Positions 860 through 62,361 of a DNA stretch of 64,000 nucleotides are shown here, one piece after another. The stretch is from Mayamaea pseudoterrestris (Eukaryota): contig BROI01000011.1 of NCBI GenBank assembly GCA_027923505.1, forward strand, positions 124,001 to 188,000. Direction: 5' to 3'. Each line of letters starts with the position of its first letter. Positions within the stretch are counted from its first letter, which is position 1. The translations under genes and the position numbers were made by a program. The notes beneath the pieces were generated by a model. That model was not told where the DNA came from and did no database searches. It saw only the letters and a program-made list of their open reading frames with translations.

Positions 860-2821
860 ATGAAGCTTACAACGACGAGACTCTCATTCGGTCTGTTAGT
901 GACGGCGATTGCGTCATTTCTCTGCAGTTTGTATTTCAGCAGTCGACTGTCGCTTGGTGCAGTCCATGGAGGTGGAGCAGGAGTCATCGATGGGACGAGT
1001 CATGACGCGGCCATCGTTTTGAATCGCTTCGAGCACCACGCGGCAGCAGTCTACTCCAAGAAACTGAAAGAGCTATTGAATGAGAATCGAAAGTTACGTC
1101 TGGAACTACAAGGAAGCAAGCAGTCACATGCAGCAGTGATTAGCAACAAGACATTGGCAACGAGTATGACTGCTGGTGCTACTGTCAACGACGTTTGCGA
1201 CGCAGCCTTTGCCCAAACAACCAAAGATCAAACCCCCGGACTGTCTCCAGACTCCATTCGTCGCTCCCGAGCCAATTGGGGTCACTCATATCGACTGGAT
1301 CAGCTTGCTCAAACACTCACGCGTCGTCAGCGCCCGCTGCAAGTGGTTGCCTTTGGAGGCTCCATTACCGTGGCCCACGGCGTTGTGCGAAACTTGACCT
1401 ACGCTGGCTCTGATAGTTATACGGGTCATTTGGAACATTGGCTGAACGAACATTATCCTATTTTAAATGTCGGAAATAGCAAGGGCCAAAAGCAGCGGCA
1501 AACGAACGCATTGAAACGACACCGCGTCTACAACATGGCGCAGCATGGATCTGACTCTTGTGCACTGGCAAAGCGCATGACAAGCATGATCGAATTCTTG
1601 CGACGATCCCACGAAGCGTTTGAAGAACCAGACATGATACTGTTGGAGTATTCCGTCAATGATTATCAGGGGCAGGATCATGTGGATCACGCTGTTTCAA
1701 AGCTCGATGTATTCTTTCAAGGCTTTCAAGATATTGCCTTGTGTGCCGAGGCTGTCGTCTACAAACTCCTAACAGAATATCCAAACGCTGCAGTCGTTTT
1801 TGTTGAATTCCGGACCGCCATTCTGGAGCGCAAGACTGCACAAATGTTACACATGGGTGTCGCGCAGCACTATCAAATACCTGTCATTTCATATGGAGAC
1901 GCCGTCTTTCCCGAGTTCTTTGAACTAGTAAACGACAAGTTGAACATTAGTGACCGATATACAGTGCCCATCGGAGAGACACTGCTTCCATTTCCCTACG
2001 GTTGTCACGAGTGTAAACCCGAGCACATTATTGATCAATTTCGATACTCCTTCAATCCACAAGGCGTCAAAAAATGTCGAACCGTCTGCGACCTAATGAT
2101 GTACGCTGGCTATGATTGCGACTTTCAGGCGCTACCTCCTCCCGGTCGAGACTACTGCTATTCGCCTCTTTTCGCCGTCGATGCCGTTCATCCAAGTGCG
2201 CTTGGCCACCGTATTGCCAATGACTTGATTGTACATGCGCTTGCCACTGCCGTGAAAGAAAACTGTCAACGACAAAGACAAGGCATACAACAATCATCAT
2301 CTCTAGCGATTCGACCGCAAGTGCTGCCTCCCTCCGGCTGGTTGGGTACGCCCAAGGCCCTGCTCACGCGGAGCAACTTTGTCATGGTGCGAGATGCCGA
2401 CTGTTTGACCTACTTTTGTAACACGCTCCTTCCGGTGCAGCGCACGCCCGGCTTTACCTTGTATTCAGATTCCAGGGGATTTTTAAAGCTGGGATGGATT
2501 GCAACAAACAGTAGTGGTGGAGAAACTATTGACTTTGAAATCGATCTGCCGGAACGACCTTGTTACGTTGTTTACTTGGCGATTTTGCGGTCCTACTCGA
2601 GCGACATGGGCCAAATGCAAGTGACTGTTATAGACAAGACAACCGGCAATGGGACGAGTGCTCAATTGGACTCACTTTGGGAGCCCAAGATCTCCGTATG
2701 GTCCGATAACCAAATTACGAGTGACGAGACTCCAGCCTGCACTGGGCAGTGCATTTTGCGCGTTGAAACGTTGCCGCAACTAGCAGAGCGTACAGGAAAC
2801 AAGGTTAAAATCCTGACATAA
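860..2821 (+). CDS. SGNH/GDSL-like hydrolase or esterase with N-terminal membrane anchor
   Basis: Long ORF with hydrophobic N-terminus, block I FGGSIT, LEYSVND and catalytic DAVHP (DxxH). Confidence 0.75.
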   Translation: MKLTTTRLSFGLLVTAIASFLCSLYFSSRLSLGAVHGGGAGVIDGTSHDAAIVLNRFEHHAAAVYSKKLKELLNENRKLRLELQGSKQSHAAVISNKTLATSMTAGATVNDVCDAAFAQTTKDQTPGLSPDSIRRSRANWGHSYRLDQLAQTLTRRQRPLQVVAFGGSITVAHGVVRNLTYAGSDSYTGHLEHWLNEHYPILNVGNSKGQKQRQTNALKRHRVYNMAQHGSDSCALAKRMTSMIEFLRRSHEAFEEPDMILLEYSVNDYQGQDHVDHAVSKLDVFFQGFQDIALCAEAVVYKLLTEYPNAAVVFVEFRTAILERKTAQMLHMGVAQHYQIPVISYGDAVFPEFFELVNDKLNISDRYTVPIGETLLPFPYGCHECKPEHIIDQFRYSFNPQGVKKCRTVCDLMMYAGYDCDFQALPPPGRDYCYSPLFAVDAVHPSALGHRIANDLIVHALATAVKENCQRQRQGIQQSSSLAIRPQVLPPSGWLGTPKALLTRSNFVMVRDADCLTYFCNTLLPVQRTPGFTLYSDSRGFLKLGWIATNSSGGETIDFEIDLPERPCYVVYLAILRSYSSDMGQMQVTVIDKTTGNGTSAQLDSLWEPKISVWSDNQITSDETPACTGQCILRVETLPQLAERTGNKVKILT

Positions 2822-2900
2822 TCAGTTCGAGAATGCATCAAGCTATAATACTTTTGGGTGGTCATGTATGTTATACAAACGAGAGGTTTGAACGCAGCAA

Positions 2901-4451
2901 CTAATTACCAACCATCTCTGCCTGTGATTTGCAATGCGTTGCGCAAGAGCAGAGCAGTGCAGAATGGCAAGATACCACAATGTCGTTCAAGCGTCCAATG
3001 GATCTCAAGGCACACACTTCGTCTGGGAAAGTTCCATAAAAGTCGGTATCATAAATCATCAATTGCTCCAGCTCCGTTAATTTACCCATCTCGGTTGGAA
3101 TTGGACCTGCCAATCGAGTCTGCTGCAAGTGCAGCGTCCGTAAGTTTGTCAGACTTCCAATTTCGCTCGGTAGCGATCCTCCCAACTGATGATTTGTATT
3201 AAAATAGAGATGCTCAAGATGCTTTAAACCTGCAAGCTCCGTCGGAATCGAACCAGTGAGATTGGCATTGTTAAATATGAGCTGCGTAACCTGTTGATGA
3301 TCGTTACAGTGCACCCGACTCCAAGACTTGCAAATACCGGATACACCGTCAACCAAGTCCCAGTCGGCGAAGCCCAAATGGTGCCGGACCAGATACATGG
3401 CATAGCCAACACCAAACATTGAATCCCACGTTGGACAATCTGTCGACGCCACTTCAAGTTCGTCCTGCGATAAAAGCCAGTCAATCGCCTTGTACTCGGG
3501 CGAGTGGTGGTCGCTCATGTTGGCGGTTTTCAAACGCCCCTACAGCAAGCCATGAATACACCCAAATCACACCAGAATGATGCCAACATCATTATTCAGG
3601 CTGCGCAACAAGATGGCATGCTTGGCTGGGATCTCAGTAGACTGCAATGTGATTGGTGACAACTTGTCACCAGTCTCAGCCTGCAGATGCCTTGACATTC
3701 AAACGCCCCTACAGCAAGCCATGTATACACCCAAATCACACCAGAATGATGCCAACATCATTATTCAGGCTGCTCAACAAGATGGTATACTTGGATGGTG
3801 TCTCAGTAGACTGCAATGTGATTGGTGACAACTTGTCACCAGTCTCAGCCCCCAGATGCAGCTCCGAGCACACTTGATGAAGTAAGAGAATCGGTCCACC
3901 TGCGAATCGGATGGGCCGAGCATAAACTCATTCCACGCTTCATACACCATGACGGCTGCGCCAAGTACCAGCAACAGTAAACCAAGTTGTCGCGAATATT
4001 TTGCTGCAAATGAGCGAACCTTCTGCGCCGGCCCTTCGTCCTCAACGTCCATTGGCTGCATTGGATGAAACGGCACATTTCCATGGGTTCCTGCTCTCGT
4101 CGAGCGACGAAACGGGCGATGGGGGTATTCGTCACTCATGGGCGCATAGAATTCTTGTCGGACGCGGGAAAGAATTTCATCGCTGAGCTCACCTGCACTG
4201 TTTGTCAACGGGTCGTCCTGCCTTTCAATCAATGGCGCGATTGCATCGATAGCACCCTGCGATTCTGTATCTGCAAACTGAGAATTGGAGCTCATGGTTC
4301 GATAGAGCAATTCGCGATAAAGCTGCCTCAATAATCCTTGCTGCGACGGCGAAAGGCGAGGGTTTCGAATGATACGGGTGCGCTGGAAACGTTGGTTGGC
4401 ACGTTCCAGCAAAGCTTCGAGAAGCGGATCTTCCAATGGATCTTGGCTCAT
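2901..4451 (-). CDS. Membrane-anchored leucine-rich-repeat protein, interrupted by satellite at ~3529-3859 (possibly a pseudogene)
   Basis: 5' part has a TM helix (QLGLLLLVLGAAVMVY). 3' part has the SPEYKAIDWL motif, an LRR N-cap (CKSWSRVHC) and plant-type LRRs (LTGSIPTEL, LGGSLPSEI, LAGPIPTEM). Both ORFs are in the same frame (4451-3533=918). Confidence 0.75.
3529..3859 (-). repeat. Dispersed ~2-monomer copy of the 169-bp satellite, inverted relative to the main array
   Basis: Reverse complement of the array consensus, including two TGGTGACAA-N-TTGTCACCA palindromes. Confidence 0.97.
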
Positions 4452-4730
4452 GGTTCGTCCAAGTTTTGAAGAGTTGCTCGCGAGCGAAGAGACTTGGAGT
4501 TGCGATCCATTTCTAATTTCAGGTTTTCCTGTAAATTCGCAAGCTAGTTTTCACATTTTCATGACGTCTTTTCATGACACCTTTTCATGATGCGTCGAGG
4601 ACGCGCCATCACCCTTCGCACGCAAGGATCATCCCTGCTCCACAACAAACACAAGGAAGCCGACTGTTTCATTGATTGTAGATGTGCATCTATACTATAC
4701 TTGTGCGTCACCAAGAACCATAAATTAGGC

Positions 4731-6695
4731 ATGAGTGAATCGGCAAGCGAAGAGAAACGAGACAGAGAGACTTCTCGAAACGACGCTTCGTCAAGGCAGA
4801 ATCTTTCGAACGAGACTTTACCCAAATGGGTCTACCAAGCCAGCGAACGGCGACAAGAGAACGGCGAAGATATCATAACGATGCCTCCTCCATTGACGGG
4901 TGATTGCACACCCGATCTCGGGACGTACGTTCGCAAAAACGTCACGAATCTTGATTCCGATTCAACTGCTCGCGCCTACTTTGACCTTGGACTACGTCTA
5001 ATGTTTGCCTATCAGCATGAACTCGCTGCCAATTGTTTTATGGCCACCGTTCAATTGGCTCCATTTTGTGCACTCGCTCATGGTTTGATCGCGCTTTGCC
5101 ATGGTCCAAATTACAACTTCAAGGGCGAACCTTACTACGAGTCGAGCTTTCGACCAAATGAAGCTGGCGCGGATGACGCATCTTGCATTTTTCCGTCTCA
5201 GCATGTTGCAAGTCGTCATTCGAAAGCAGCGATGCAAGTGATTGACAGTAGTCGAGACACGCACCAACGTCAGCCTGATGAATCAGGAGCAGTTCGTCCA
5301 AACATGATTTCGGAGTCGGAGATGCAGTGGCTGCAAGCGATTCACATTCTCACGAGTCAACCTGGAGTGGATCCATTACAAGCGACACAAGTGGTCGGAC
5401 ATGGCTACGCAAACGCAATGCGCCTTGTGCATCAAGCATATCCAGATGACGCAGACATTGCCTTTTACTTTGCCGAAGCGCTCATGGTGCTAAACGCATG
5501 GCGCTTGTACGAGTATCCTTCGGGCGAGCCATTGAGCCCTGACGTTGATGAAATTCGAAACGTACTAGAAAACATGCTTGCTCGAAGTGAGCATGCCCAC
5601 CACGCTGGGTTGTGCCACTTGTACGTGCACTTGATGGAAATGTCGGCACAGCCAGAACTGGCGTTCCTTGCCAGCGCATCGCTCCGACACGAGTTCCCCG
5701 ACGCAGGTCACTTGGTGCACATGGGCACGCATATTGATGTGCTGGTGGGCGACTATGAGGCCTGCGTCAAGTTCAATCAAGCTGCCGTTATCGCGGACGA
5801 GCACGTTGCAACGTTTTCACCACAAACGAATGGACCACAATCATTCTACTTTAATTACGCTGTTCACAATTATCACATGCTTGTGTTTGGCGCCATTCTC
5901 GGTGGAATGGAGCAACAAGGCATGATTGCCGCTCGAAAGTTGAATGAAACTGTCAATGAATCATTCTTCGAGAAGCATCCAAACTTGGTCGCATATCTGG
6001 AGAGCTATTCGGCACTCGATGTTCACATCATGATTCGATTTGGTCGGTGGAAAGAAATTTTGGAACTAGAGCTGCCCAAAAATGAGCTCTTGATGCTATA
6101 TCGAGCGGGCAGTATGCACTCGGCGCGTGGATTGGCGCTGGCGACCATGGAGCGGACAGAGGAGGCACTGGAGGAAGCGAAGCAGCTGGACGCGCTGAGA
6201 CAGTTACCGGAAGCCAGTGCTCGCATACTCTACAACAACTCTGTCGATCGGCTACTGGACGTGGAGGCTGCCATGCTGCGTGGCGAAATTGCCTATCGAG
6301 TCGGGGATTACGAGTTGGCATTCTCGTTGCTTCGAGATGCCGTCAAGCTACAGGACGGACTGAACTACGATGAGCCTTGGGGCAAGATGCAGCCAATCAG
6401 GCACGCTCTTGGTGGGTTGCTATTGGAGCAAGGGCAGGTTGATGAAGCTGCAGAGGTGTTTCGCTTGGATCTCAAGTTACATCCAAAGAACCCATTTGCG
6501 ATGGTTGGACTCATTGCTTGTTTGAAGCGTATGGAAAGGGAATGTTGCGGGAGGAAAGGCAGCGGCGGCACCAGTAGTAATAGTATGGGCAGTGTAACCC
6601 TGAGTGAGCTTGAGTCGCTACTGAAGGAGCAGCGGGGCTTGCACTGGGCCGACTTCGACATCAGGGTTGCTTGTGAATGTTGCAAGCGATCGTGA
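4731..6695 (+). CDS. TPR-domain protein
   Basis: Intronless ORF with helical TPR-like repeats and motifs GPNYN, HAGLCHLYVHLME, AGHLVHM and YDEPW..P.RHALG. Confidence 0.8.
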   Translation: MSESASEEKRDRETSRNDASSRQNLSNETLPKWVYQASERRQENGEDIITMPPPLTGDCTPDLGTYVRKNVTNLDSDSTARAYFDLGLRLMFAYQHELAANCFMATVQLAPFCALAHGLIALCHGPNYNFKGEPYYESSFRPNEAGADDASCIFPSQHVASRHSKAAMQVIDSSRDTHQRQPDESGAVRPNMISESEMQWLQAIHILTSQPGVDPLQATQVVGHGYANAMRLVHQAYPDDADIAFYFAEALMVLNAWRLYEYPSGEPLSPDVDEIRNVLENMLARSEHAHHAGLCHLYVHLMEMSAQPELAFLASASLRHEFPDAGHLVHMGTHIDVLVGDYEACVKFNQAAVIADEHVATFSPQTNGPQSFYFNYAVHNYHMLVFGAILGGMEQQGMIAARKLNETVNESFFEKHPNLVAYLESYSALDVHIMIRFGRWKEILELELPKNELLMLYRAGSMHSARGLALATMERTEEALEEAKQLDALRQLPEASARILYNNSVDRLLDVEAAMLRGEIAYRVGDYELAFSLLRDAVKLQDGLNYDEPWGKMQPIRHALGGLLLEQGQVDEAAEVFRLDLKLHPKNPFAMVGLIACLKRMERECCGRKGSGGTSSNSMGSVTLSELESLLKEQRGLHWADFDIRVACECCKRS

Positions 6696-6815
6696 ACTTT
6701 TCCGGACGAGCAAGGTACATATTTACGGCTTGTTCTATTTGCATGTTACTGATATTCACTTATAGTTTATAAGATTTCAATCATTACGTATTATCTTATA
6801 TCAGCATTTTCGCTT

Positions 6816-9694
6816 TTACAAAGACGACCAAAAATCGGGCTTGGATAATTCGCTAGCCTGAAGAATGCCCAAAAACTTGGCATTCGAACGCATTCCCTCC
6901 AGCGTCTGCGATATCTTGCGTGCCGACGACGGCAACGTGTGGTCTTTAAAAAAAGCTTCGATCTCGTCCGCCTTTTCGTTCGAGCAAAAACCCGAGCAGC
7001 ACATGACAATGACGGCATCCATCAAAGAAGAACTAGCGTTTGCGACCATCGCCTTGATCGCTTCAAAGTTGTCCTGGAAATACTTCCAAGCAACTTGGCG
7101 TCCCGCACTGTTCGAGTGTCCGACGCTGCCCATCAGGTAAAAGAAGTCTTGCAATTTAATTTCGCCCGATGTTGACCACTCCATCGTCTTGAGCTTGAGT
7201 TTAGGATCAGAAATGAATCCCAGCGAGCCGAGCACATGCTTTCGCTCTGCATTGTCGGTGGCGTCGTAGTAGTACTTCTTAACTTCATCGTACTCCTTAG
7301 CCGTTCCATTCTTTAAATAAATCTTGAACACTGGGCTGCGAATATCGCTAGGAAGGCTTTGCACGTCGTCGTGATTCTCCAAAAAGGCTTTAAATCGCGT
7401 TGATGCTTCCGAAGCGACCGATTCGTCGTCATAGGCAAACGTGCCGAGCAGATTGACCAAAATACCACGCAACATCGAAGTCAATGGGTCGTCAGACTTG
7501 GAAGCCACCCACCCGACTTTTTGCATACCATTGACGACAATCGACCGAGCAAACGCATGAAAGTTGGCGTTGATAGCTTCGTCATCCGACAGTACAGTGT
7601 CGAGTCCGTTCAAAGCGCTCGAAATTGACTCCCATACTACGTAACTGTCCTCGTCTCTGTAACTGGCGAGCAGTCGCATCAAGGCTTCCGGTGCCATGTG
7701 ATTTGCCTTGACCAGAGCGTACGCATCCGTCAACAAACCAGCGCGGTCAATGCCGGACATAGACTTGTCTTGGATACCAGTCGCGAGACGCTTGAGCATC
7801 TCTTCGCTTGGCAAGACGCGCATAGGAACTTCCTGGCCGGCATTGAGTTTGACCCACTTTGATGCAGGAAGGGTCACCGTTGCCGTTTTCTGACGCATCA
7901 GCGTCATGTCCTCCTGCGGCCCATTTTCGTTGCACGTCATGATTGGAATTGTCCAGTGTTTGGCCAATCCTTCCTCGTCCAGTTCTGACCCATCCGCCAA
8001 AAACCAAACTTGCTCCAGTTGCAGCGTGACAGCATCAGCCTTCCAGTCCTCTCCGACGACCTTTAATAATGGAAATCCCATTTGCTCCGTCCAGCTCGTC
8101 ATCATTTCCGCAACAGGCATTTTGCTGACCTCTTCCCACGCATTCCACAAATCGAGAGTTTCCGTATTGCCGTACGCATACTTTTTCATGTAGTTGACAA
8201 GTCCAGTGCGGAAAAAGTTCATTCCCAGCACCGCCTTGATCATGCGAATCACCGACGCTCCTTTGCAGTAGCTAATCGCGTCAAAGACTTGCTCCACCTC
8301 CTTGGCGTCATGAATGGGCACCTGAATCGGATGACTGGATCGCAGCGCGTCGAGGCGGAGGGCCGACGCCAAGGCGCCCGTGGTGAATTGGTCCCACATT
8401 TTGAACTCTGGAAAGAGTTCGTTCGTCGCCCAATTCTCGCACCAACTGGCAAAGCCTTCGTTCAACCACAAGTCGTCCCACCACTGCATGGTGACCAAGT
8501 TTCCAAACCACTGGTGGGCCAGTTCGTGCGTGACAACCACCGCGACGCGCTGCTTTTGACTGGAGCTCGCCTTGATGGGGTCAATGAGCAAGTCGACTTC
8601 GCGGTACGTGACCAGTCCCCAGTTTTCCATGGCGCCAGCGGCGAACTCGGGAATGGCAACCTGCGTGGTGGAGAAATGTTACAATGAGAAAGTTGCTCGT
8701 CAAGAAAGACGGATGCCAACAAAATTTTTACTATTTACTTACCATGTCCAGTTTCAACAACGGATACGGCACTTCAAAGAACGCATTGTAGGCATCCAGC
8801 GCTCGCACGGCGCAGTCCAAGGCGTAGTGACCAGAGTCCGACTTGCCCGGCGGCGTGTACACCTTGACCAGGACACCTTCCTTGGAAACGGCTTGAACCG
8901 AGTCAAACTCGCCAACGATAAAGGCCAGCAAGTAGGGACTCATTTGGGGCGTGTCCATGAATGTGACGGATTTCTTCACTTTGGCAACACTGTTGTTGTT
9001 ACCATTCGACGCTCCACTCTTGATGGTTGCAATGGTTTTTTCCGGCATGTTGCTTAAACAGTCCAATTGCTGCGGCACAATCAAGGTCAACGCAAAGACT
9101 GCCTTGGCGGCTGGTTCGTCCACGCACGGAAAGGCTCGTCGCGCGTCAATGGATTCAAACTGCGTCGAAGCCATGATTTTCTTGTTGCCGTGTATATCGG
9201 TATATTGCGATCGATAGAATCCGCACATTTGATTGTTCAACATGCCCGAGTAGTCGACTTTCAACGAAAAACTACCCGACGATGGAAGCGCATCCGGTGC
9301 AAAAACAAACTCGACCGTTGTCGCGGCAAAATTCATGCGAATCTCGTCGACGGCAACTTTGGTTCCATCCTCCAATATAGCACGAGCCGACTGAAAGGCC
9401 AATTCCTTGGCGTGCAACGTAACGGAGCGATAGGGCTGCTGCTGCTGATTGTTGACTTTGAAGGAAATGTCGACATGTCCCTGAAACGTAAACGCCTCCA
9501 AGTCAGGTTCAATCGACAAGTCATATCTGCAATGAATGAAAATTTGTTGAGTGATTTATCAACTGAGCCATTTCTGCAAGAGCGAAGTTTACTTGCTCCT
9601 GAAAAATCTCAATCGAAGCCACGTACCGCGTCGGAACGACATGCGACGGCAAAATAACCCGGCCTTCCTTCTTGTCCAACAGTGTCACGAGCAT
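6816..9694 (-). CDS. M1 family (puromycin-sensitive-like) aminopeptidase; 3 exons, introns 9527-9626 and 8661-8742
   Basis: GAMENWG and HELAHQWFG...NEGFA (HEXXH-18-E) motifs; STQFE..DARRAFPC; GTACGT..CAG and GTAAGT..CAG introns join the exons in frame. Confidence 0.95.
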
Positions 9695-10240
9695 GATGAG
9701 TAGTACTGTAAACTATGCGAATATAGAATTCAATGCAATTGGATGATCTTGCTGCGGCCAAGATCCATGAATATCTTGCTGCGGATCGTCATGGAAGCCG
9801 TCGGATGGAGAGGGCCGTCACGCTTTATCGCAGCGTGAATGAAAGAATGTCAATGACACTCGTGACGAGGCATTGACATTGGGCAATTGTCTTCAGTGAC
9901 ATTCTGTGACTTTCAAACAATATTGCCTTTCCCTTGCCCATGGCCGATCAACGACCGATGGGAGGTCACCATGCGTCATGAAAATGGTGACGAGCCTTCG
10001 GCAACCCTTGCCACCACTTTGACCGTTCCAACAACGCAGACGGCGGTCATGGGAAGGCCTGCCTGCCACTCCCTTGAACGGCAGCGTCGTGTCGGGCAAA
10101 CTGCATCGTCTTTTTGACTCTCTCCTACCGGTAGTAGCTGACACTGCGGCATTCTCCTACTTGGCTGGACTGCTTAATTCTATCATCTCTTGGTGGTATA
10201 TTCATTTCAATTTCTTTTAGTCTCTACTACGTTTGCAATC

Positions 10241-15591: not shown

Positions 15592-18500
15592 ACTGCGGGC
15601 TGAGACTGGGGATAAGGTCTCATTGCAGTCAACTGAGACCAGCCAGGCATACCATCTTGTAGCACAGCTTAAAGTAATGATGTTGGCACCATTCTGTTGT
15701 AATTTGGGTGTATCCATGACTTCTAAAGAAAAGCATACCATCTTATTACGCAGCCTCAACAATGATGTTGGCATCATTCTGGTGTGATTTGGGTGTACAC
15801 ATGGCTTGCTGTATGGGCGTTTGAATGTCATGGCATCTGCGGGCTGAGACTGGTGACAAGTTGTCACCAATCACATTGCAGTCTTCTAAGACCCCAGCCA
15901 AGCATACCATCTTATTGCGCAGCCTGAATAATGATGTTGGCATCATTCTGGTGTGATTTGGGTGTACACATCACATGCTGTAGGGGCGTTTGAATGTCAA
16001 GGCATCTGCGGGCTGAGACTGGTGACAAGTTGTCACCAATATGATTGCAGTCTTCTGAGACACCATCCAAGCATACCAGCTTGTAGAGCAGCCTGAATAA
16101 TGATGTTGGCATCATTTTGGTGTGATTTGGGTGTATGCATGGCATGCTGTAGGGGCGTTTGAATATTAAGGCATCTGCGGGCTGAGACTGGTGACAAGTT
16201 GTCACCAATATCATTGCAGTCTACTGAGATCCCAGCCAAGCATACCATCTTGTAGCGCAGCCTGAATAATGATGTTGGCATCATTCTGGTGTGATTTGGG
16301 TGTATACATGGCTTGCTGTAGGGGCGTTTGAATGTCAAGGCATCTGCAGGCTCAGACTGGTGACAAGTTGTCACCAATATGATTGCAGTCTACTGAGACC
16401 CCAGCCAAGCATACCATCTTGTAGCGCAGCCTGAATAATGATGTTGGCATCATTCTGGTGTGATTTGGGTGTGCACATGGCTTGCTGTAGGGGCGTTTGA
16501 ATGTCATGGCATCTGCGGGCTGAGACTGGTGACAAGTTGTCACCAATCACATTGCAGTCTACTGAGACACCATCCTAGCATACCAGATTGTAGCGCAGCC
16601 TGAATAATGATGTTGGTATCATTCTGGTGTATTTGGGTGTATGCATGGCTTGCTGTAGGGGCGTTTGAATGTCAAGGCATCTGCAGGCTGAGACTGGTGA
16701 CAAGTTGTCACCAATCACATTGCAGTCTACTGAGACACCATCCAAGCATACCAGCTTGTAGCGCAGCCTGAATAATGATGTTGGCATCATTCTGGTGTGA
16801 TTTGGGTGTATACATGGCTTGCTGTAGGGGCGTTTGAATGTCAAGGCATCTGCAGGCTTAGACTGGCGACAAGTTGTCACCAATATGATTGCAGTCTTCT
16901 GAGACCCCAACCAAGCATACCATCTTATTGCGCAGCCTGAATAACGATGTTGGCATCATTCTGGTGTGATTTGGGTGAACACATGGCTTGCTGTAGGGGC
17001 GTTTGAATGTCATGGCATCTGCGGGCTGAGACTGGTGTCAAGTTGTCACCAATATGATTGCAGTCTACTGAGACACCATCCAAGCATACCAGCTTGTAGC
17101 GCAGCCTGAATAATGATGTTGGCAGCATTCTGGTGTGATTTGGGTGTATACATGGCTTGCTGTAGGGGCGTTTGAATGTCAAGGCTGCATCTGCAGGCTC
17201 AGACTGGTGTCAAGATGTCATTAATATGATTGCAGTCTTCTGAGACCCCAGCCAAGCATACCATCTTGTAGCGCAGCCTGAATAATGATGTTGGCATCAT
17301 TCTGGTGTGATTTGGGTGTATACATGGCTTGCTGTAGGGGCGTTTGAATGTCATGGCATCTGCGGGCTGAGACTGGTGACAAGTTGTCACCAATCACATT
17401 GCAGTCTTCTGAGACCCCAGCCAAGCATACCATCTTATTGCGCAGCCTGAATAATGATGTTGGCATCATTCTGGTGTGATTTGGGTGTACACATGGCTTG
17501 CTGTAGGGGCGTTTGAATGTCAAGGCATCTGCGGGCTGAGACTGGTGACAAGTTGTCACCAATCACATTGCAGTCTACTGAGACACCATCCAAGCATACC
17601 AGCTTGTAGAGCAGCCTGAATAATGATGTTGGCATCATTCTGGTGTGATTTGGGTGTATACATGGCTTGCTGTAGGGGCGTTTGAATGTCAAGGCATCTG
17701 CGGGCTGAGACTGGTGACAAGTTGTCACCAATCACATTGCAGTCTACTGAGACCCCAGCCAAGCATACCATCTTGTAGCGCAGCCTGAATAATGATGTTG
17801 GCATCATTCTGGTGTGATTTGGGTGTATGCATGGCTTGCTGTAGGGGCGTTTGAATGTCAAGGCATCTGCGGGCTGAGACTGGTGACAAGTTGTCACCAA
17901 TCACATTGCAGTCTACTGAGACACCATCCAAGCATACCAGCTTGTAGCGCAGCCTGAATAATGATGTTGGCATCATTCTGGTGTGATTTGGGTGTATACA
18001 TGGCTTGCTGTAGGGGCGTTTGAATGTCAAGGCATCTGCAGGCTGAGACTGGTGACAAGTTGTCACCAATCACATTGCAGTCTACTGAGACACCATCCAA
18101 GCATACCAGCTTGTAGCGCAGCCTGAATAATGATGTTGGCATCATTCTGGTGTGATTTGGGTGTATACATGGCTTGCTGTAGGGGCGTTTGAATGTCAAG
18201 GCATCTGCAGGCTGAGACTGGTGACAAGTTGTCACCAATATCATTGCAGTCTTCTGAGACCCCAGCCAAGCATACCATCTTGTAGCGCAGCCTGAATAAT
18301 GATGTTGGCATCATTCTGGTGTGATTTGGGTGTACACATGGCTTGCTGTAGGGGCGTTTGAATGTCATGGCATCTGCAGGCTGAGACTGGTGACAAGTTG
18401 TCACCAATCACATTGCAGTCTACTGAGACACCAGCCAAGCATACCAGCTTGTAGCGCAGCCTGAATAATGATGTTGGCATCATTCTGGTGTGATTTGGGT

Positions 18501-21500
18501 GTATACATGGCTTGCTGTAGGGGCGTTTGAATGTCAAGGCATCTGCGGGCTGAGACTGGTGACAAGTTGTCACCAATCACATTGCAGTCTACTGAGACAC
18601 CATCCAAGCATACCAGCTTGTAGCGCAGCCTGAATAATGATGTTGGCATCATTCTGGTGTGATTTGGGTGTATACATGGCTTGCTGTAGGGGCGTTTGAA
18701 TGTCAAGGCATCTGCGGGCTGAGACTGGTGACAAGTTGTCACCAATATCATTGCAGTCTTCTGAGACCCCAGCCAAGCATACCAGCTTGTAGAGCAGCCT
18801 GAATAATGATGTTGGCATCATTCTGGTGTGATTTGGGTGTATACATGGCTTGCTGTAGGGGCGTTTGAATGTCAAGGCATCTGCGGGCTGAGACTGGTGA
18901 CAAGTTGTCACCAATATCATTGCAGTCTTCTGAGACACCAGCCAACCATACCAGCTTGTAGCGCAGCCTGAATAATGATGTTGGCATCATTCTGGTGTGA
19001 TTTGGGTGTATACATGGCTTGCTGTAGGGGCGTTTGAATGTCAAGGCTGCATCTGCAGGCTGAGACTGGTGTCAAGTTGTCACCAATATGATTGCAGTCT
19101 TCTGAGACCCCAGCCAAGCATACCATCTTGTTGCGCAGCCTGAATAATGATGTTGGCATCATTCTGGTGTGATTTGGGTGTATACATGGCTTGCTGTAGG
19201 GGCGTTTGAATGTCAAGGCATCTGCGGGCTGAGACTGGTGACAAGTTGTCACCAATATGATTGCAGTCTTCTGAGACCCCAGCCAAGCATACCATCTTGT
19301 TGCGCAGCCTGAATAATGATGTTGGCATCATTCTGGTGTGATTTGGGTGTATACATGGCTTGCTGTAGGGGCGTTTGAATGTCATGGCATCTGCGGGCTG
19401 AGACTGGTGACAAGTTGTCACCAATATCATTGCAGTCTTCTGAGACACCATCCAAGCATACCATCTTGTTGCGCAGCCTGAATAATGATGTTGGCATCAT
19501 TCTGGTGTGATTTGGGTGTATACATGGCTTGCTGTAGGGGCGTTTGAATGTCAAGGCATCTGCGGGCTGAGACTGGTGACAAGTTGTCACCAATAATATT
19601 GCAGTCTTCTGAGACCCCGCCCAAGCATACCATCTTGTAGAGCAGCCTGAATAATGATGTTGGCATCATTCTGGTGTGATTTGGGTGTATACATGGCTTG
19701 CTGTAGGGGCGTTTGAATGTCAAGGCATCTGCGGGCTGAGACTGGTGACAAGTTGTCACCAATATCATTGCAGTCTACTGAGACCCCAGCCAAGCATACC
19801 AGCTTGTAGCGCAGCCTGAATAATGATGTTGGCATCATTCTGGTGTGATTTGGGTGTATACATGGCTTGCTGTAGGGGCGTTTGAATGTCAAGGCATCTG
19901 CGGGCTGAGACTGGTGACAAGTTGTCACCAATATCATTGCAGTCTACTGAGACACACCCTAGCCATGCATACCAGCTTGTAGCGCAGCCTGAATAATGAT
20001 GTTGGCATCATTCTGGTGTGATTTGGGTGTATACATGGCTTGCTGTAGGGGCGTTTGAATGTCAAGGCATCTGCAGGCTGAGACTGGTGACAAGTTGTCA
20101 CCAATATCATTGCAGTCTACTGAGACACCATCCAAGCATACCAGCTTGTAGCGCAGCCTGAATAATGATGTTGGCATCATTCTGGTGTGATTTGGGTGTA
20201 TACATGGCTTGCTGTAGGGGCGTTTGAATGTCAAGGCATCTGCGGGCTGAGACTGGTGACAAGTTGTCACCAATATGATTGCAGTCTTCTGAGACCCCAG
20301 CCAAGCATACCAGCTTGTAGCGCAGCCTGAATAATGATGTTGGCATCATTCTGGTGTGATTTGGGTGTATACATGGCTTGCTGTAGGGGCGTTTGAATGT
20401 CAAGGCATCTGCGGGCTGAGACTGGTGACAAGTTGTCACCAATATCATTGCAGTCTTCTGAGACCCCAGCCAAGCATACCAGCTTGTAGCGCAGCCTGAA
20501 TAATGATGTTGGCATCATTCTGGTGTGATTTGGGTGTATACATGGCTTGCTGTAGGGGCGTTTGAATGTCAAGGCATCTGCAGGCTGAGACTGGTGACAA
20601 GTTGTCACCAATATCATTGCAGTCTACTGAGACACCATCCAAGCATACCATCTTGTAGCGCAGCCTGAATAATGATGTTGGCATCATTCTGGTGTGATTT
20701 GGGTGTATACATGGCTTGCTGTAGGGGCGTTTGAATGTCAACGCATCTGCAGGCTGAGACTGGTGACAAGTTGTCACCAATATCATTGCAGTCTTCTGAG
20801 ACCCCAGCCAAGCATACCATCTTGTAGCGCAGCCTGAATAATGATGTTGGCATCATTCTGGTGTGATTTGGGTGTATACATGGCTTGCTGTAGGGGCGTT
20901 TGAATGTCAAGGCATCTGCGGGCTGAGACTGGTGACAAGTTGTCACCAATATCATGGCAGTCTACTCAGACCCCAGCCAAGCATACCATCTTATTACGCA
21001 GCCTCAACAATGATGTTGGCATCATTCTGGTGTGATTTGGGTGTACACATGGCTTGCTGTATGGGCGTTTGAATGTCATGGCATCTGCGGGCTGAGACTG
21101 GTGACAAGTTGTCACCAATCACATTGCAGTCTTCTAAGACCCCAGCCAAGCATACCATCTTATTGCGCAGCCTGAATAATGATGTTGGCATCATTCTGGT
21201 GTGATTTGGGTGTACACATCACATGCTGTAGGGGCGTTTGAATGTCAAGGCATCTGCGGGCTGAGACTGGTGACAAGTTGTCACCAATATGATTGCAGTC
21301 TTCTGAGACACCATCCAAGCATACCAGCTTGTAGAGCAGCCTGAATAATGATGTTGGCATCATTTTGGTGTGATTTGGGTGTATGCATGGCATGCTGTAG
21401 GGGCGTTTGAATATTAAGGCATCTGCGGGCTGAGACTGGTGACAAGTTGTCACCAATATCATTGCAGTCTACTGAGATCCCAGCCAAGCATACCATCTTG

Positions 21501-24500
21501 TAGCGCAGCCTGAATAATGATGTTGGCATCATTCTGGTGTGATTTGGGTGTATACATGGCTTGCTGTAGGGGCGTTTGAATGTCAAGGCATCTGCAGGCT
21601 CAGACTGGTGACAAGTTGTCACCAATATGATTGCAGTCTACTGAGACCCCAGCCAAGCATACCATCTTGTAGCGCAGCCTGAATAATGATGTTGGCATCA
21701 TTCTGGTGTGATTTGGGTGTGCACATGGCTTGCTGTAGGGGCGTTTGAATGTCATGGCATCTGCGGGCTGAGACTGGTGACAAGTTGTCACCAATCACAT
21801 TGCAGTCTACTGAGACACCATCCTAGCATACCAGATTGTAGCGCAGCCTGAATAATGATGTTGGTATCATTCTGGTGTATTTGGGTGTATGCATGGCTTG
21901 CTGTAGGGGCGTTTGAATGTCAAGGCATCTGCAGGCTGAGACTGGTGACAAGTTGTCACCAATCACATTGCAGTCTACTGAGACACCATCCAAGCATACC
22001 AGCTTGTAGCGCAGCCTGAATAATGATGTTGGCATCATTCTGGTGTGATTTGGGTGTATACATGGCTTGCTGTAGGGGCGTTTGAATGTCAAGGCATCTG
22101 CAGGCTTAGACTGGCGACAAGTTGTCACCAATATGATTGCAGTCTTCTGAGACCCCAACCAAGCATACCATCTTATTGCGCAGCCTGAATAACGATGTTG
22201 GCATCATTCTGGTGTGATTTGGGTGAACACATGGCTTGCTGTAGGGGCGTTTGAATGTCATGGCATCTGCGGGCTGAGACTGGTGTCAAGTTGTCACCAA
22301 TATGATTGCAGTCTACTGAGACACCATCCAAGCATACCAGCTTGTAGCGCAGCCTGAATAATGATGTTGGCAGCATTCTGGTGTGATTTGGGTGTATACA
22401 TGGCTTGCTGTAGGGGCGTTTGAATGTCAAGGCTGCATCTGCAGGCTCAGACTGGTGTCAAGATGTCATTAATATGATTGCAGTCTTCTGAGACCCCAGC
22501 CAAGCATACCATCTTGTAGCGCAGCCTGAATAATGATGTTGGCATCATTCTGGTGTGATTTGGGTGTATACATGGCTTGCTGTAGGGGCGTTTGAATGTC
22601 ATGGCATCTGCGGGCTGAGACTGGTGACAAGTTGTCACCAATCACATTGCAGTCTTCTGAGACCCCAGCCAAGCATACCATCTTATTGCGCAGCCTGAAT
22701 AATGATGTTGGCATCATTCTGGTGTGATTTGGGTGTACACATGGCTTGCTGTAGGGGCGTTTGAATGTCAAGGCATCTGCGGGCTGAGACTGGTGACAAG
22801 TTGTCACCAATCACATTGCAGTCTACTGAGACACCATCCAAGCATACCAGCTTGTAGAGCAGCCTGAATAATGATGTTGGCATCATTCTGGTGTGATTTG
22901 GGTGTATACATGGCTTGCTGTAGGGGCGTTTGAATGTCAAGGCATCTGCGGGCTGAGACTGGTGACAAGTTGTCACCAATCACATTGCAGTCTACTGAGA
23001 CCCCAGCCAAGCATACCATCTTGTAGCGCAGCCTGAATAATGATGTTGGCATCATTCTGGTGTGATTTGGGTGTATGCATGGCTTGCTGTAGGGGCGTTT
23101 GAATGTCAAGGCATCTGCGGGCTGAGACTGGTGACAAGTTGTCACCAATCACATTGCAGTCTACTGAGACACCATCCAAGCATACCAGCTTGTAGCGCAG
23201 CCTGAATAATGATGTTGGCATCATTCTGGTGTGATTTGGGTGTATACATGGCTTGCTGTAGGGGCGTTTGAATGTCAAGGCATCTGCAGGCTGAGACTGG
23301 TGACAAGTTGTCACCAATCACATTGCAGTCTACTGAGACACCATCCAAGCATACCAGCTTGTAGCGCAGCCTGAATAATGATGTTGGCATCATTCTGGTG
23401 TGATTTGGGTGTATACATGGCTTGCTGTAGGGGCGTTTGAATGTCAAGGCATCTGCAGGCTGAGACTGGTGACAAGTTGTCACCAATATCATTGCAGTCT
23501 TCTGAGACCCCAGCCAAGCATACCATCTTGTAGCGCAGCCTGAATAATGATGTTGGCATCATTCTGGTGTGATTTGGGTGTACACATGGCTTGCTGTAGG
23601 GGCGTTTGAATGTCATGGCATCTGCAGGCTGAGACTGGTGACAAGTTGTCACCAATCACATTGCAGTCTACTGAGACACCAGCCAAGCATACCAGCTTGT
23701 AGCGCAGCCTGAATAATGATGTTGGCATCATTCTGGTGTGATTTGGGTGTATACATGGCTTGCTGTAGGGGCGTTTGAATGTCAAGGCATCTGCGGGCTG
23801 AGACTGGTGACAAGTTGTCACCAATCACATTGCAGTCTACTGAGACACCATCCAAGCATACCAGCTTGTAGCGCAGCCTGAATAATGATGTTGGCATCAT
23901 TCTGGTGTGATTTGGGTGTATACATGGCTTGCTGTAGGGGCGTTTGAATGTCAAGGCATCTGCGGGCTGAGACTGGTGACAAGTTGTCACCAATATCATT
24001 GCAGTCTTCTGAGACCCCAGCCAAGCATACCAGCTTGTAGAGCAGCCTGAATAATGATGTTGGCATCATTCTGGTGTGATTTGGGTGTATACATGGCTTG
24101 CTGTAGGGGCGTTTGAATGTCAAGGCATCTGCGGGCTGAGACTGGTGACAAGTTGTCACCAATATCATTGCAGTCTTCTGAGACACCAGCCAACCATACC
24201 AGCTTGTAGCGCAGCCTGAATAATGATGTTGGCATCATTCTGGTGTGATTTGGGTGTATACATGGCTTGCTGTAGGGGCGTTTGAATGTCAAGGCTGCAT
24301 CTGCAGGCTGAGACTGGTGTCAAGTTGTCACCAATATGATTGCAGTCTTCTGAGACCCCAGCCAAGCATACCATCTTGTTGCGCAGCCTGAATAATGATG
24401 TTGGCATCATTCTGGTGTGATTTGGGTGTATACATGGCTTGCTGTAGGGGCGTTTGAATGTCAAGGCATCTGCGGGCTGAGACTGGTGACAAGTTGTCAC

Positions 24501-27500
24501 CAATATGATTGCAGTCTTCTGAGACCCCAGCCAAGCATACCATCTTGTTGCGCAGCCTGAATAATGATGTTGGCATCATTCTGGTGTGATTTGGGTGTAT
24601 ACATGGCTTGCTGTAGGGGCGTTTGAATGTCATGGCATCTGCGGGCTGAGACTGGTGACAAGTTGTCACCAATATCATTGCAGTCTTCTGAGACACCATC
24701 CAAGCATACCATCTTGTTGCGCAGCCTGAATAATGATGTTGGCATCATTCTGGTGTGATTTGGGTGTATACATGGCTTGCTGTAGGGGCGTTTGAATGTC
24801 AAGGCATCTGCGGGCTGAGACTGGTGACAAGTTGTCACCAATAATATTGCAGTCTTCTGAGACCCCGCCCAAGCATACCATCTTGTAGAGCAGCCTGAAT
24901 AATGATGTTGGCATCATTCTGGTGTGATTTGGGTGTATACATGGCTTGCTGTAGGGGCGTTTGAATGTCAAGGCATCTGCGGGCTGAGACTGGTGACAAG
25001 TTGTCACCAATATCATTGCAGTCTACTGAGACCCCAGCCAAGCATACCAGCTTGTAGCGCAGCCTGAATAATGATGTTGGCATCATTCTGGTGTGATTTG
25101 GGTGTATACATGGCTTGCTGTAGGGGCGTTTGAATGTCAAGGCATCTGCGGGCTGAGACTGGTGACAAGTTGTCACCAATATCATTGCAGTCTACTGAGA
25201 CACACCCTAGCCATGCATACCAGCTTGTAGCGCAGCCTGAATAATGATGTTGGCATCATTCTGGTGTGATTTGGGTGTATACATGGCTTGCTGTAGGGGC
25301 GTTTGAATGTCAAGGCATCTGCAGGCTGAGACTGGTGACAAGTTGTCACCAATATCATTGCAGTCTACTGAGACACCATCCAAGCATACCAGCTTGTAGC
25401 GCAGCCTGAATAATGATGTTGGCATCATTCTGGTGTGATTTGGGTGTATACATGGCTTGCTGTAGGGGCGTTTGAATGTCAAGGCATCTGCGGGCTGAGA
25501 CTGGTGACAAGTTGTCACCAATATGATTGCAGTCTTCTGAGACCCCAGCCAAGCATACCAGCTTGTAGCGCAGCCTGAATAATGATGTTGGCATCATTCT
25601 GGTGTGATTTGGGTGTATACATGGCTTGCTGTAGGGGCGTTTGAATGTCAAGGCATCTGCGGGCTGAGACTGGTGACAAGTTGTCACCAATATCATTGCA
25701 GTCTTCTGAGACCCCAGCCAAGCATACCAGCTTGTAGCGCAGCCTGAATAATGATGTTGGCATCATTCTGGTGTGATTTGGGTGTATACATGGCTTGCTG
25801 TAGGGGCGTTTGAATGTCAAGGCATCTGCAGGCTGAGACTGGTGACAAGTTGTCACCAATATCATTGCAGTCTACTGAGACACCATCCAAGCATACCATC
25901 TTGTAGCGCAGCCTGAATAATGATGTTGGCATCATTCTGGTGTGATTTGGGTGTATACATGGCTTGCTGTAGGGGCGTTTGAATGTCAACGCATCTGCAG
26001 GCTGAGACTGGTGACAAGTTGTCACCAATATCATTGCAGTCTTCTGAGACCCCAGCCAAGCATACCATCTTGTAGCGCAGCCTGAATAATGATGTTGGCA
26101 TCATTCTGGTGTGATTTGGGTGTATACATGGCTTGCTGTAGGGGCGTTTGAATGTCAAGGCATCTGCGGGCTGAGACTGGTGACAAGTTGTCACCAATAT
26201 CATTGCAGTCTTCTGAGACCCCAGCCAAGCATACCATCTTGTTGCGCAGCCTGAATAATGATGTTGGCATCATTCTGGTGTGATTTGGGTGTATACATGG
26301 CTTGCTGTAGGGGCGTTTGAATGTCAAGGCATCTGCGGGCTGAGACTGGTGACAAGTTGTCACCAATATCATTGCAGTCTTCTGAGACACCATCCAAGCA
26401 TACCATCTTGTTGCGCAGCCTGAATAATGATGTTGGCATCATTCTGGTGTGATTTGGGTGTATACATGGCTTGCTGTAGGGGCGTTTGAATGTCAAGGCT
26501 GCATCTGCAGGCTGAGACTGGTGTCAAGTTGTCACCAATATCATTGCAGTCTTCTGAGACACCCGCCAAGCATACCAGCTTGTAGAGAAGCCTAAATAAT
26601 GATGTTGGCATCATTCTGGTGTGATTTGGGTGTATACATGGCTTGCTGTAGGGGCGTTTGAATGTCAAGGCATCTGCGGGCTGAGACTGGTGACAAGTTG
26701 TCACCAATATCATTGCAGTCTACTGAGACACCATCCAAGCATACCATTTGTAGAGCAGCCTGAATAATGATGTTGGCATCATTCTGGTGTGATTTGGGTG
26801 TATACATGGCTTGCTGTAGGGGCGTTTGAATGTCAAGGCATCTGCGGGCTGAGACTGGTGACAAGTTGTCACCAATATGATTGCAGTCTACTGAGACACC
26901 ATCCAAGCATACCATCTTGTAGCGCAGCCTGAATAATGATGTTGGCATCATTCTGGTGTGATTTGGGTGTATACATGGCTTGCTGTAGGGGCGTTTGAAT
27001 GTCAAGGCATCTGCGGGCTGAGACTGGTGACAAGTTGTCACCAATATCATTGCAGTCTTCTGAGACACCATCCAAGCATACCATCTTGTAGCGCAGCCTG
27101 AATAATGATGTTGGCATCATTCTGGTGTGATTTGGGTGTATACATGGCTTGCTGTAGGGGCGTTTGAATGTCAAGGCATCTGCGGGCTGAGACTGGTGAC
27201 AAGTTGTCACCAATATGATTGCAGTCTACTGAGACCCCAGCCAAGCATACCATCTTGTAGCGCAGCCTGAATAATGATGTTGGCATCATTCTGGTGTGAT
27301 TTGGGTGTATACATGGCTTGCTGTAGGGGCGTTTGAATGTCAAGGCATCTGCGGGCTGAGACTGGTGACAAGTTGTCACCAATATCATTGCAGTCTTCTG
27401 AGACCCCAGCCAAGCATACCATCTTGTTGCGCAGCCTGAATAATGATGTTGGCATCATTCTGGTGTGATTTGGGTGTATACATGGCTTGCTGTAGGGGCG

Positions 27501-30500
27501 TTTGAATGTCAAGGCATCTGCGGGCTGAGACTGGTGACAAGTTGTCACCAATATGATTGCAGTCTACTGAGACACCATCCAAGCATACCAGCTTGTAGAG
27601 CAGCCTGAATAATGATGTTGGCATCATTCTGGTGTGATTTGGGTGTATACATGGCTTGCTGTAGGGGCGTTTGAATGTCAAGGCATCTGCAGGCTGAGAC
27701 TGGTGACAAGTTGTCACCAATATCATTGCAGTCTTCTGAGACCCCAGCCAAGCATACCATCTTGTAGCGCAGCCTGAATAATGATGTTGGCATCATTCTG
27801 GTGTGATTTGGGTGTATACATGGCTTGCTGTAGGGGCGTTTGAATGTCAAGGCATCTGCGGGCTGAGACTGGTGACAAGTTGTCACCAATATCATTGCAG
27901 TCTTCTGAGACCCCAGCCAAGCATACCATCTTGTAGCGCAGCCTGAATAATGATGTTGGCATCATTCTGGTGTGATTTGGGTGTATACATGGCTTGCTGT
28001 AGGGGCGTTTGAATGTCAAGGCATCTGCGGGCTGAGACTGGTGACAAGTTGTCACCAATATCATTGCAGTCTTCTGAGACACCATCCAAGCATACCAGCT
28101 TGTAGCGCAGCCTGAATAATGATGTTGGCATCATTCTGGTGTGATTTGGGTGTATACATGGCTTGCTGTAGGGGCGTTTGAATGTCAAGGCATCTGCGGG
28201 CTGAGACTGGTGACAAGTTGTCACCAATATCATTGCAGTCTTCTGAGACCCCAGCCAAGCATACCAGCTTGTAGCGCAGCCTGAATAATGATGTTGGCAT
28301 CATTCTGGTGTGATTTGGGTGTATACATGGCTTGCTGTAGGGGCGTTTGAATGTCAAGGCATCTGCGGGCTGAGACTGGTGACAAGTTGTCACCAATATG
28401 ATTGCAGTCTACTGAGACACCATCCAAGCATACCAGCTTGTAGCGCAGCCTGAATAATGATGTTGGCATCATTCTGGTGTGATTTGGGTGTATACATGGC
28501 TTGCTGTAGGGGCGTTTGAATGTCAAGGCATCTGCGGGCTGAGACTGGTGACAAGTTGTCACCAATATCATTGCAGTCTACTGAGACACCATCCAAGCAT
28601 ACCATCTTGTAGCGCAGCCTGAATAATGATGTTGGCATCATTCTGGTGTGATTTGGGTGTATACATGGCTTGCTGTAGGGGCGTTTGAATGTCAAGGCAT
28701 CTGCGGGCTGAGACTGGTGACAAGTTGTCACCAATATCATTGCCGTCTTCTAAGACACCAGCCAAGCATTCCAGCTTGTAGAGCAGCCTGAATAATGATG
28801 TTGGCATCATTCTGGTGTGATTTGGGTGTATGCATGGCTTGCTGTAGGGCGTTTGAATGTCAAGGCATCTGCAGGCTGAGACTGGTGACAAGTTGTCACC
28901 AATATCGATGTCTGCGCAGCCTGAATAATGATGTTGGCATCATTCTGGTGTGATTTGGGTGTATACATGGCTTGCTGTAGGGGCATTTGAATGTCAAGGC
29001 ACCTGCAAGCTGAGACTGGTGACAAGTTGTCACCAATATCATTGCAGTCTTCTGAGACACCAGCCAAGCATACCAGCTTGTAGAGCAGCCTCAAGAATGA
29101 TGTTGGCATCATTCTGGTGTGATTTGGTTGTATTCATGGCTTGCTGTAGGGGCGTTTCAATGTCAAGGCATCTGCAGGCTGAGACTGGTGACAAGTTGTC
29201 ACCAATATCATTGCAGTCTGCTGAGACACCATCCAATCATACCAGCTTGTAGAGCAGCCTGAATAATGATGTTGGCATCATTCTGGTGTGATTTGGGTGT
29301 ATACATGGCTTGCTGTAGGGGCGTTTGAATGTCAAGGCATCTGCGGGCTGAGACTGGTGACAAGTTGTCACCAATATCATTGCAGTCTTCTGAGACCATA
29401 GCCTAGCATACCAGCTTGTTGCTTAGCCACAATAATGATTTTGGCATCATTCTGGTGTGACTTGGGTGTATACATGGCTTGCTGTAGGGGCATTTGAATG
29501 TCAAGGCATCTGCGGGCTGAGACTGGTGACAAGTTGTCACCAATCACATTGCAGTCAACTGACACACTATCCAAGCATACCAGCTTGTAGAGCAGCCTGA
29601 TTAATGATGTTGGCATCATTTTGGTGTGATTTGGGTGTATAAATGGCTTGCTGTAGGGGCGTTTGAATGTAAAGGCATCTGCAGGCTGAGACTGGTGACA
29701 AGTTGTCACCAATATCATTGCAGTCTTCTGAGACCTTGGCCAAGCATACCATCTTGTTGCGCAGCCTGAATGATGATGTTGGCATCATTCTGGTGTGATT
29801 TGGGTGTATACATGGCTTGCTGTAGGGGCGTTTGAATGTCAAGGCATCTGCGGGCTGAGACTGGTGACAAGTTGTCACCAATCACATTGCAGTCTACTGA
29901 GACACCATCCAAGCATACCAGCTTGTAGAGCAGCCTGAATAATGATGTTGGCATCATACTGGTGTGATTTGGGTGTATACATGGCTTGCTGTAGGGGCAT
30001 TTGAAAGTCAAGGCATCTGCGGGCTGAGACTGGTGACAAGTTGTCACCAATATCATTGCAGTCTTTTGAGACACCCACCAAGCATACCAGCTTGTAGTGC
30101 AGCCTGAATAATGATGTTGGCATCATTCTGGTGTGATTTGGGTGTATACATGGCTTGCTGTAGGGGCGTTTGAATGTCAAGGCATCTGCGGGCTGAGACT
30201 GGTGACAAGTTGTCACCAATATCATTGCAGTCTTCTGAGACCCCGGCCAAGCATACCATCTTGTTGCGCAGCCTGAATAATGATGTTGGCATCATTCTGG
30301 TGTGATTTGGGTGTATACATGGCTTGCTGTAGGGGCGTTTGAATGTCAAGGCATCTGCGGGCTGAGACTGGTGACAAGTTGTCACCAATATCATTGCAGT
30401 CTTCTGAAACACCCACCAATCATAACAGCTTGTAGCGCAGCCTGAATAATGATGTTGGCATCATTCTGGTGTGATTTGGGTGTATACATGGCTTGCTGTA

Positions 30501-31600: not shown

Positions 31601-31610
31601 AAAAAATTCA

Positions 31611-31694
31611 TTTCTTAAGCCATGTATATACCCAAGGGACACAAGAATGGTGCCAACATGGTATGCCTATACCCAGATGGTGTCTCGTTAGACT
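31611..31694 (-). repeat. Inverted, internally deleted copy of the 169-bp monomer closing array A (TIR-like)
   Basis: AAGCCATGTATATACCCAA..AGAATGGTGCCAACATGGTATGCCT..GATGGTGTCTC is the reverse complement of the monomer. Confidence 0.85.
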
Positions 31695-62360: not shown

Positions 62361-62361
62361 T

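Follow-up and report, generated by a model that had tools for sequence, protein, structure and literature searches.

How did a piece of satellite DNA come to lie inside a protein-coding gene, and does the cell remove it from the message as an intron? The question arises at a membrane-anchored leucine-rich repeat (LRR) gene in the window (the whole stretch of DNA analysed, 64,000 nucleotides), which lies on contig C11 of an assembly (G000) of 30.6 Mb in 41 contigs that represents one haplotype.

A satellite dimer inside an LRR gene

The gene and its insert comprise the following features (window coordinates).

4451-2901, minus strand: host gene, 1551 bases (a multiple of three), with a stop at its 3' end (translation)
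3861-4451, minus strand: 5' half of the host gene, 197 codons, a low-complexity N-terminal part followed by a membrane segment (translation)
3930-3986, minus strand: predicted membrane-spanning segment, residues 156-174, the best 19-residue Kyte-Doolittle window (1.72)
3860, minus strand: left junction base, matching neither the array nor the empty allele; an added base or a haplotype difference (by eye)
3529-3859, minus strand: satellite insert, 331 bases, i.e., two 169-bp units minus 7 (1.96 units), in the same sense as the gene (BLAST; TRF, 2.0 copies)
3817-3847, minus strand: palindrome of the satellite unit, 15-bp arms (87%), containing the proposed splice donor GTGACA at 3839-3834
3774-3776, minus strand: first stop within the insert, codon 226; an unspliced message would give 225 residues, keeping the membrane segment and lacking the LRR
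3525-3528, minus strand: right junction; 3525-3527 is a Thr codon common to the empty allele, with one silent difference, and 3528 is an added base or a haplotype difference (by eye)
2901-3527, minus strand: 3' half of the host gene, with linker, cap, leucine-rich repeats (about 2973-3293), Cys-rich end, and stop

TRF, BLAST, and translation agreed on the architecture described in the first-pass annotation, with about two satellite monomers between the membrane segment and the LRR domain that add stops while keeping the frame. The insert carries five in-frame stops (at 3776, 3767, 3701, 3569, and 3542), and the gene halves on either side share one frame. The 3' half matched Pfam PF23598, PF12799, and PF00560, with the LRR matches all lying 3' of the insert, and the 5' half matched no Pfam family. 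The gene is present in one copy in the assembly, the next best LRR matches (paralogues) being 32-41% alike, and the 5' half found its own locus as its sole match there. When the LRR half was searched against longer proteins for orthologues, the best 120 of 256 matches were generic LRR proteins of bacteria, plants, and diatoms, which gave no information on an empty site. The diatom matches among these LRR relatives, together with the general look of the genes, are why the genome is described here as diatom-like. An Rfam search of 3300-4100 returned no matches up to E = 1, and none of the 15 inverted pairs found placed terminal inverted repeats at the insert ends.

The other allele lacks the insert

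Four public runs (X1-X4) were compared over 2300-9700 as contigs with depths. X1 and X3 were typed as DNA-like, being free of intron joints and having satellite-bin depths of 491,547 and 5.2 million, respectively, and X2 and X4 as RNA-like, on the basis of joints at a neighboring gene's introns together with low satellite-bin depths (20 and 17) rather than from the run record. A contig of X1 covering 2300-3570 bridged the right junction, reaching 42 letters into the satellite with 1 differing letter in 1,270; this was the only junction bridged by the listed contigs, and X1 may itself be the source of the assembly.

An empty allele, with a joint 3524>3861, was found in both X3 and X4. In it, 12 other letters replace 336, a net difference of 324 bases or 108 codons, and the reading ARS-LTP-TANMSD runs unbroken in the frame of the gene (by eye). 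Its depth in X3 (study P2) was 69.5, about half of the 126-143 recorded for bins 2300-2793. In X4 (study P1), it was represented by one 446-nt contig, for which the number of intervening letters was inferred from the piece table, the letters themselves being seen for X3 only. Because the skipped form occurs in DNA, it is an allele rather than a splice product. The neighboring genes were also present in two forms (37 differences in 449 bases at 5942-6390), which, together with the halved depth in X3, points to a heterozygous diploid of which the assembly is one haplotype. It was thus borne out that a short satellite oligomer had inserted into a gene whose empty state keeps the frame, and the empty site expected on the other haplotype was found in one DNA-like and one RNA-like run.

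Compared with the empty allele, the insert allele has lost 7-9 target bases and gained 0-2, with none duplicated and at most 1 base of homology, figures that are uncertain by 1-2 bases because the alleles differ at 27 of the 291 bases just 5' of the site. An alternative proposal, excision of 312 nt at a GGGGC microhomology to give IWG-RLK, did not hold: both IWG and RLK are satellite-coded, the left GGGGC depends on a G at 3852 where 89 of 89 array dimers have C, and the empty allele actually observed reads differently.

Local donor monomers and probable capture at a break

The likely source of the insert lies in the same window.

15593-31659, plus strand: local array of the 169-bp satellite, some 94 units, decayed at its ends and oriented opposite to the insert
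17525-17855, plus strand: best donor, two adjacent monomers (17525 and 17694), 9 mismatches in 331 (97.3%)
22773-23103, plus strand: equally good twin of the donor, monomers 22773 and 22942, 5,248 bases further on

BLAST of the insert against the array at 15.7-31.6 kb gave up to 97.3% identity over 331 bases, with both insert units matching adjacent array monomers in array order, 14-19 kb from the insert. Other arrays reached at most 95.8% (28 loci in four arrays) or at most 94.3% (25 further loci with a full-length match). An exact 21-mer of the subfamily occurs 167 times in the assembly, which indicates that the subfamily is small; as 100 of the 167 were listed, the local donor is the best among the copies compared. 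Circular permutation of the donor brought no improvement, with 9 mismatches either way. The array itself contains a higher-order duplication of 5,248 bases (17525-23103), and 58 of its 86 dimers have an identical twin.

Two letters of the insert, at 3617 and 3631, are rare in the local array, where 87 of 89 and 86 of 89 dimers, respectively, differ. The 18-mer around 3617 occurs at 6 exact places in the assembly, including the insert, and the five others are arrays in which every unit with C at 3617 has G at 3631. These holders of the rare letters were considered as better donors and rejected, as their units are only 79-88% alike to the insert. The description of the insertion as fresh was likewise set aside: the insert differs from the best donor at 9 positions, and that 5 of these letters should be rare in an array where so many dimers have an identical twin indicates that it is not brand new.

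We propose that one allele would have suffered a double-strand break in the linker that joins the membrane segment to the LRR domain, and that repair would have closed it with 331 bases of 169-bp satellite sequence, the source being the array that lies 14-19 kb from the site on the same contig; 7-9 target bases would have been lost in the process and none duplicated. The other allele would have stayed without an insert and open across the site. The insert allele would be transcribed with the satellite retained, would stop at codon 226, and would probably be null, sheltered by the other allele, and the kept frame would be a one-in-three chance. A heterozygous, probably null allele created by local satellite capture at a break is, in our assessment, likely the correct explanation; break repair as the route and loss of function of the insert allele are both probable readings of the sequence.

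Compatible with this explanation is a variant in which the carrier was a two-unit, 338-base circle that looped out of the local array, opened, was trimmed by 7 bases, and was joined into the break. The insert is 7 bases short of two units, and a random length would fall this near a whole number in about 9% of cases (15 of 169); circles have also been proposed as carriers of dispersed satellites in the accessible parts of PMC7719264 and PMC7403614. Against this, the units match adjacent monomers in array order and permutation gains nothing, although a crossover within the final 80 bases would leave no trace, and three other short blocks of the satellite measure about 2.1, 1.2, and 1.6-1.8 units. 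We regard a circular carrier as possible but rather doubtful. The near-whole length leans slightly toward a circle, and the straight order and nearness lean toward a templated copy, and both routes of capture are plausible.

Evidence that the satellite is retained in the transcript

The first-pass annotation had also suggested that the satellite supplies its own splice sites.

3540-3839, minus strand: candidate 300-nt intron, CTG/GTGACA (3839) to TAG/GGG (3540), restoring the frame on paper; not seen as a joint

Computation showed that this pair does take out 300 nt and restore the frame, as stated, and that it is the only frame-restoring pair with both sites inside the insert. Its excision would leave 11 satellite-coded residues where the empty allele has 3, making the linker 8 residues longer. 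Another GT..AG pair that restores the frame has both of its sites in the flanks (3514-3873, 360 nt); its use would also remove 12 native codons, and it was not seen as a joint either.

The RNA-like runs did not show the predicted splicing. X2 and X4 join the CT..AC introns of the neighboring gene (8658>8741 in both, and near 9526>9627 in each), and neither shows a joint 3539/3840 in the contigs listed, which have a gene depth of 3-9 and drop rare forms. X2 carries the insert haplotype on both flanks (depth 9.29 at 3470 and 4.83 from 3946), and at 3617 and 3631 it showed the letters of the window only, at a depth of 7.85; 98% of X1 depth differs at 3617. At 3692, the window letter accounted for 5.1 of a depth of 29.1. 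Genomic carry-over does not explain the insert letters in X2, given its satellite-bin depth of 20 against 491,547 in X1 and 5.2 million in X3. Read-through in X2 was pieced together from letters and depths, no listed RNA contig having been seen to bridge an insert junction. Several other RNA contigs of X2 and X4 join satellite to unique sequence, with loose ends at 3664, 3733, 3738, and 3774, the last being a unique-looking end in X4; of the three others, sought in the assembly, one was found (L052, a decayed block), and some of these joins may be insertions on the unassembled haplotype.

The splice pair itself is no better than chance. Among 169 length-matched pieces of the array, one per phase, 72 gave a frame-restoring internal GT..AG pair removing at least 85%; the corresponding figures were 47 of 169 for the opposite strand and 82 of 200 for shuffled sequences. 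The only two confirmed introns of the neighbor have the donors GTAAGT and GTACGT, lengths of 82 and 100, and pyrimidine-rich acceptors; GTGACA lacks the +5 G of both donors and is predicted to be paired in an 8-bp stem in the MFE and centroid structures, with a whole fold that is modeled as not unusual (z of -1.37). An ab initio donor spectrum from the sampled DNA yielded only 9 candidate donors and was too noisy for any conclusion to be drawn.

These observations bear on a reading in which the insert is a new, imperfect intron: a substantial part of the messages from the insert allele would be spliced, with GTGACA (3839) as donor and TAG (3540) as acceptor, and the resulting receptor would be longer by 8 residues. 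In favor of this reading are the existence of the frame-restoring pair, the net in-frame length of the insert, and its persistence for long enough to accumulate 9 differences from its donor; intron gain during break repair is also a named mechanism in the accessible text of PMC3443670. The missing joint in X2 and X4 despite their other introns, the insert letters at flank depth in X2, the weak, stem-bound donor, and the ease with which control pieces yield such a pair all weigh against it, and we consider this reading improbable. The same low standing applies to its fuller form, a satellite-born intron caught at birth, in which a heterozygous capture would be spliced at cryptic GT and AG sites in part of the messages; the frame would be kept, the linker would contain 11 satellite-coded residues, and the same cell would carry an allele free of the intron. 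Overall, removal of the satellite as an intron was not supported; the RNA data show transcripts of the insert allele that retain the satellite, and a low-level spliced form may exist at a depth of 3-9.

Divergence between the two forms

Divergence between the two forms is uneven, amounting to 27 of 291 bases 5' of the site and only 3 of 254 bases 3' of it, on the LRR side. Around the membrane segment (3891-4031), some 140 bases contain 23 listed differences, of which 15 affect codon positions 1 or 2, and at 3927/3929 a one-base loss and a one-base gain compensate each other. The divergence 5' of the site and its codon positions would fit an "empty" form that is a close paralogue rather than an allele. 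Such a paralogue is absent from assembly G000, however; the near identity 3' of the site, an X3 depth of about half that of the shared flank, and neighboring genes that likewise occur in two forms all favor alleles, making a paralogue very unlikely.

Distribution of the satellite in the assembly

The first-pass annotation had inferred that short oligomers of the satellite are mobile and may be spliced out like introners. A first sample of 61 stretches of 10 kb (60 spaced over contigs C1-C20 and one beside the window) contained 41,102 bases of satellite in 610,000, in 8 blocks of at least 10 units; eight further 10-kb stretches contained one decayed block of 4.8 units. Stand-alone blocks of at most 3 units numbered zero in all 69 stretches (690 kb, 2.3% of the assembly, 28 of 41 contigs), and by the rule of three, such blocks are capped at about 130 in the assembly. 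Screening of 19 LRR paralogue loci found no satellite in any of them. Introner-like mobility was not borne out by these samples, and the one genic case has neither a target-site duplication nor terminal inverted repeats.

A targeted look identified three other short blocks: one of about 2.1 units on C2, one of 1.2 units on C3 close to an array, and, on C9, a third of 1.6-1.8 units that is decayed and that an X2 contig connects to unique sequence. No long frame is split by any of the three, and they do not share the same ends; the start and end unit positions of the short blocks (1/162, 10/22, 8/38, and 39/125) show that the termini are not constant. Helitron- and Helentron-borne tandem repeats have fixed element ends around the repeat block. 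The flanks of 11 satellite blocks, viewed by eye, showed no shared element end. Among satellite blocks more generally, ends were noted at unit positions 38-46, just after the palindrome, in L055, L066, L071, L056, L058, and L086, and starts at unit positions 1-10 in the window insert, L054, L055, L067, and L107; these clusters may be real break or copy points or mere stops of the local alignment.

That the unit is a mobile introner-like element with genic insertion biased in orientation and frame therefore seems highly improbable: the one genic case in sense orientation, the palindromes of the unit, and the three other short blocks would fit such an element, but no stand-alone block of at most 3 units appeared in the 69 stretches and none in the 19 paralogue loci, terminal inverted repeats are lacking, target bases were lost rather than duplicated, and the short blocks vary in ends and length, with the other three splitting no long frame. 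Least credible of all is an assembly artefact in which satellite reads were mis-joined into the gene, since, for all the abundance of the satellite and the bridging of only one junction by a listed contig, the insert's own rare letters recur in the RNA-type run X2 and an X1 contig that differs at 1 of 1,270 letters spans the right junction.

Other tandem repeats were encountered in the same survey. The window holds a second satellite at 34147-44210, in which a unit of about 511 bases is repeated some 19 times at about 90% identity and which the tandem finder missed due to its period, as well as two abutting tandem families, one with a decayed unit of 163 bp (61577-62362) and one whose 344-bp unit contains a palindrome (62363-64000). 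On C6, the edge of another tandem block carries one nearly complete, circularly shifted unit of the 344-bp family, which starts at position 193 and ends at 191 (L100:6301-6624). On C11, an array opens with a short stretch of its own unit in inverted orientation, forming a fold-back end (L133:2370-2464), and a 181-bp tandem family with 99% identity occurs in L107, where it adjoins a 169-bp block, and in L118.

Comparison with known systems

Satellite capture is a known kind of event, and the locus can be placed among published cases as far as the accessible portions of the reports describe them. Single repeats of human alpha satellite are dispersed in euchromatin as about 1-2.4 monomers, with circles proposed as the carrier (PMC7719264). 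As in those dispersals, the insert described here is a one-off short piece away from the arrays, with its own ends and no sign of transposition. The human cases in that account are intronic or intergenic and mostly show duplications of 2-10 bp, whereas the present insert is in coding sequence with 7-9 bases lost, its empty allele is still present, and its likely donor is 14-19 kb away. Of the features of dispersed euchromatic satellites, we found the bulk of the repeat in long arrays and a unique site with a known empty state; a short duplication or homology at the junctions was not found (at most 1 base, with 1-2 bases uncertain).

The Rsp-like satellite on the X of Drosophila simulans and Drosophila mauritiana forms repair-seeded clusters, some of whose junctions have target deletions of 2 and 36 bp, with template switching, gene conversion, or circles as candidate routes, according to the available part of PMC7403614. 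A satellite placed at a new site through repair, with a small target deletion, is common to both systems. In the same portion of that report, the Rsp-like repeats enter 1.688 arrays via reused, shared microhomologies of 4-7 bp; here, in contrast, the target is unique coding DNA with at most 1 base of homology. Capture of filler DNA or numts by end joining, as outlined in the accessible text of PMC2567098, similarly involves foreign DNA sealed in a break with added bases or small deletions; our case differs in that the filler is a nuclear satellite contributed by an array close by, and in that the genome is diatom-like.

The insert resembles introners, as characterized in the accessible sections of PMC12130899, in being a repeated sequence in a gene with GT and AG near its ends, but differs from them in being without a genic copy family, consistent termini, target-site duplication, or shown splicing; the same sections state that candidates whose likeness came from satellites were removed from the introner survey. 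With regard to intron gain during break repair, as far as the available text of PMC3443670 goes, the origin fits (a repair scar and an allele without the insert), while the outcome so far does not, efficient splicing not having been seen at the low depth available. In the literature searched, whose coverage leaves most subscription journals outside, we found no published satellite piece in a diatom exon or exonic satellite insertion; a paper devoted to diatom satellites was not found in the literature searched.

Significance

The locus does not represent a new mobile system. It offers a natural record of a satellite seeding a new site, in coding sequence, with the empty allele, both junctions, and the likely donor monomers all visible. 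Because both alleles are expressed in the same runs, the splicing of such captures is cheap to test. Should partial splicing be demonstrated, the insert would be a rare case of break repair turning a satellite into an intron.
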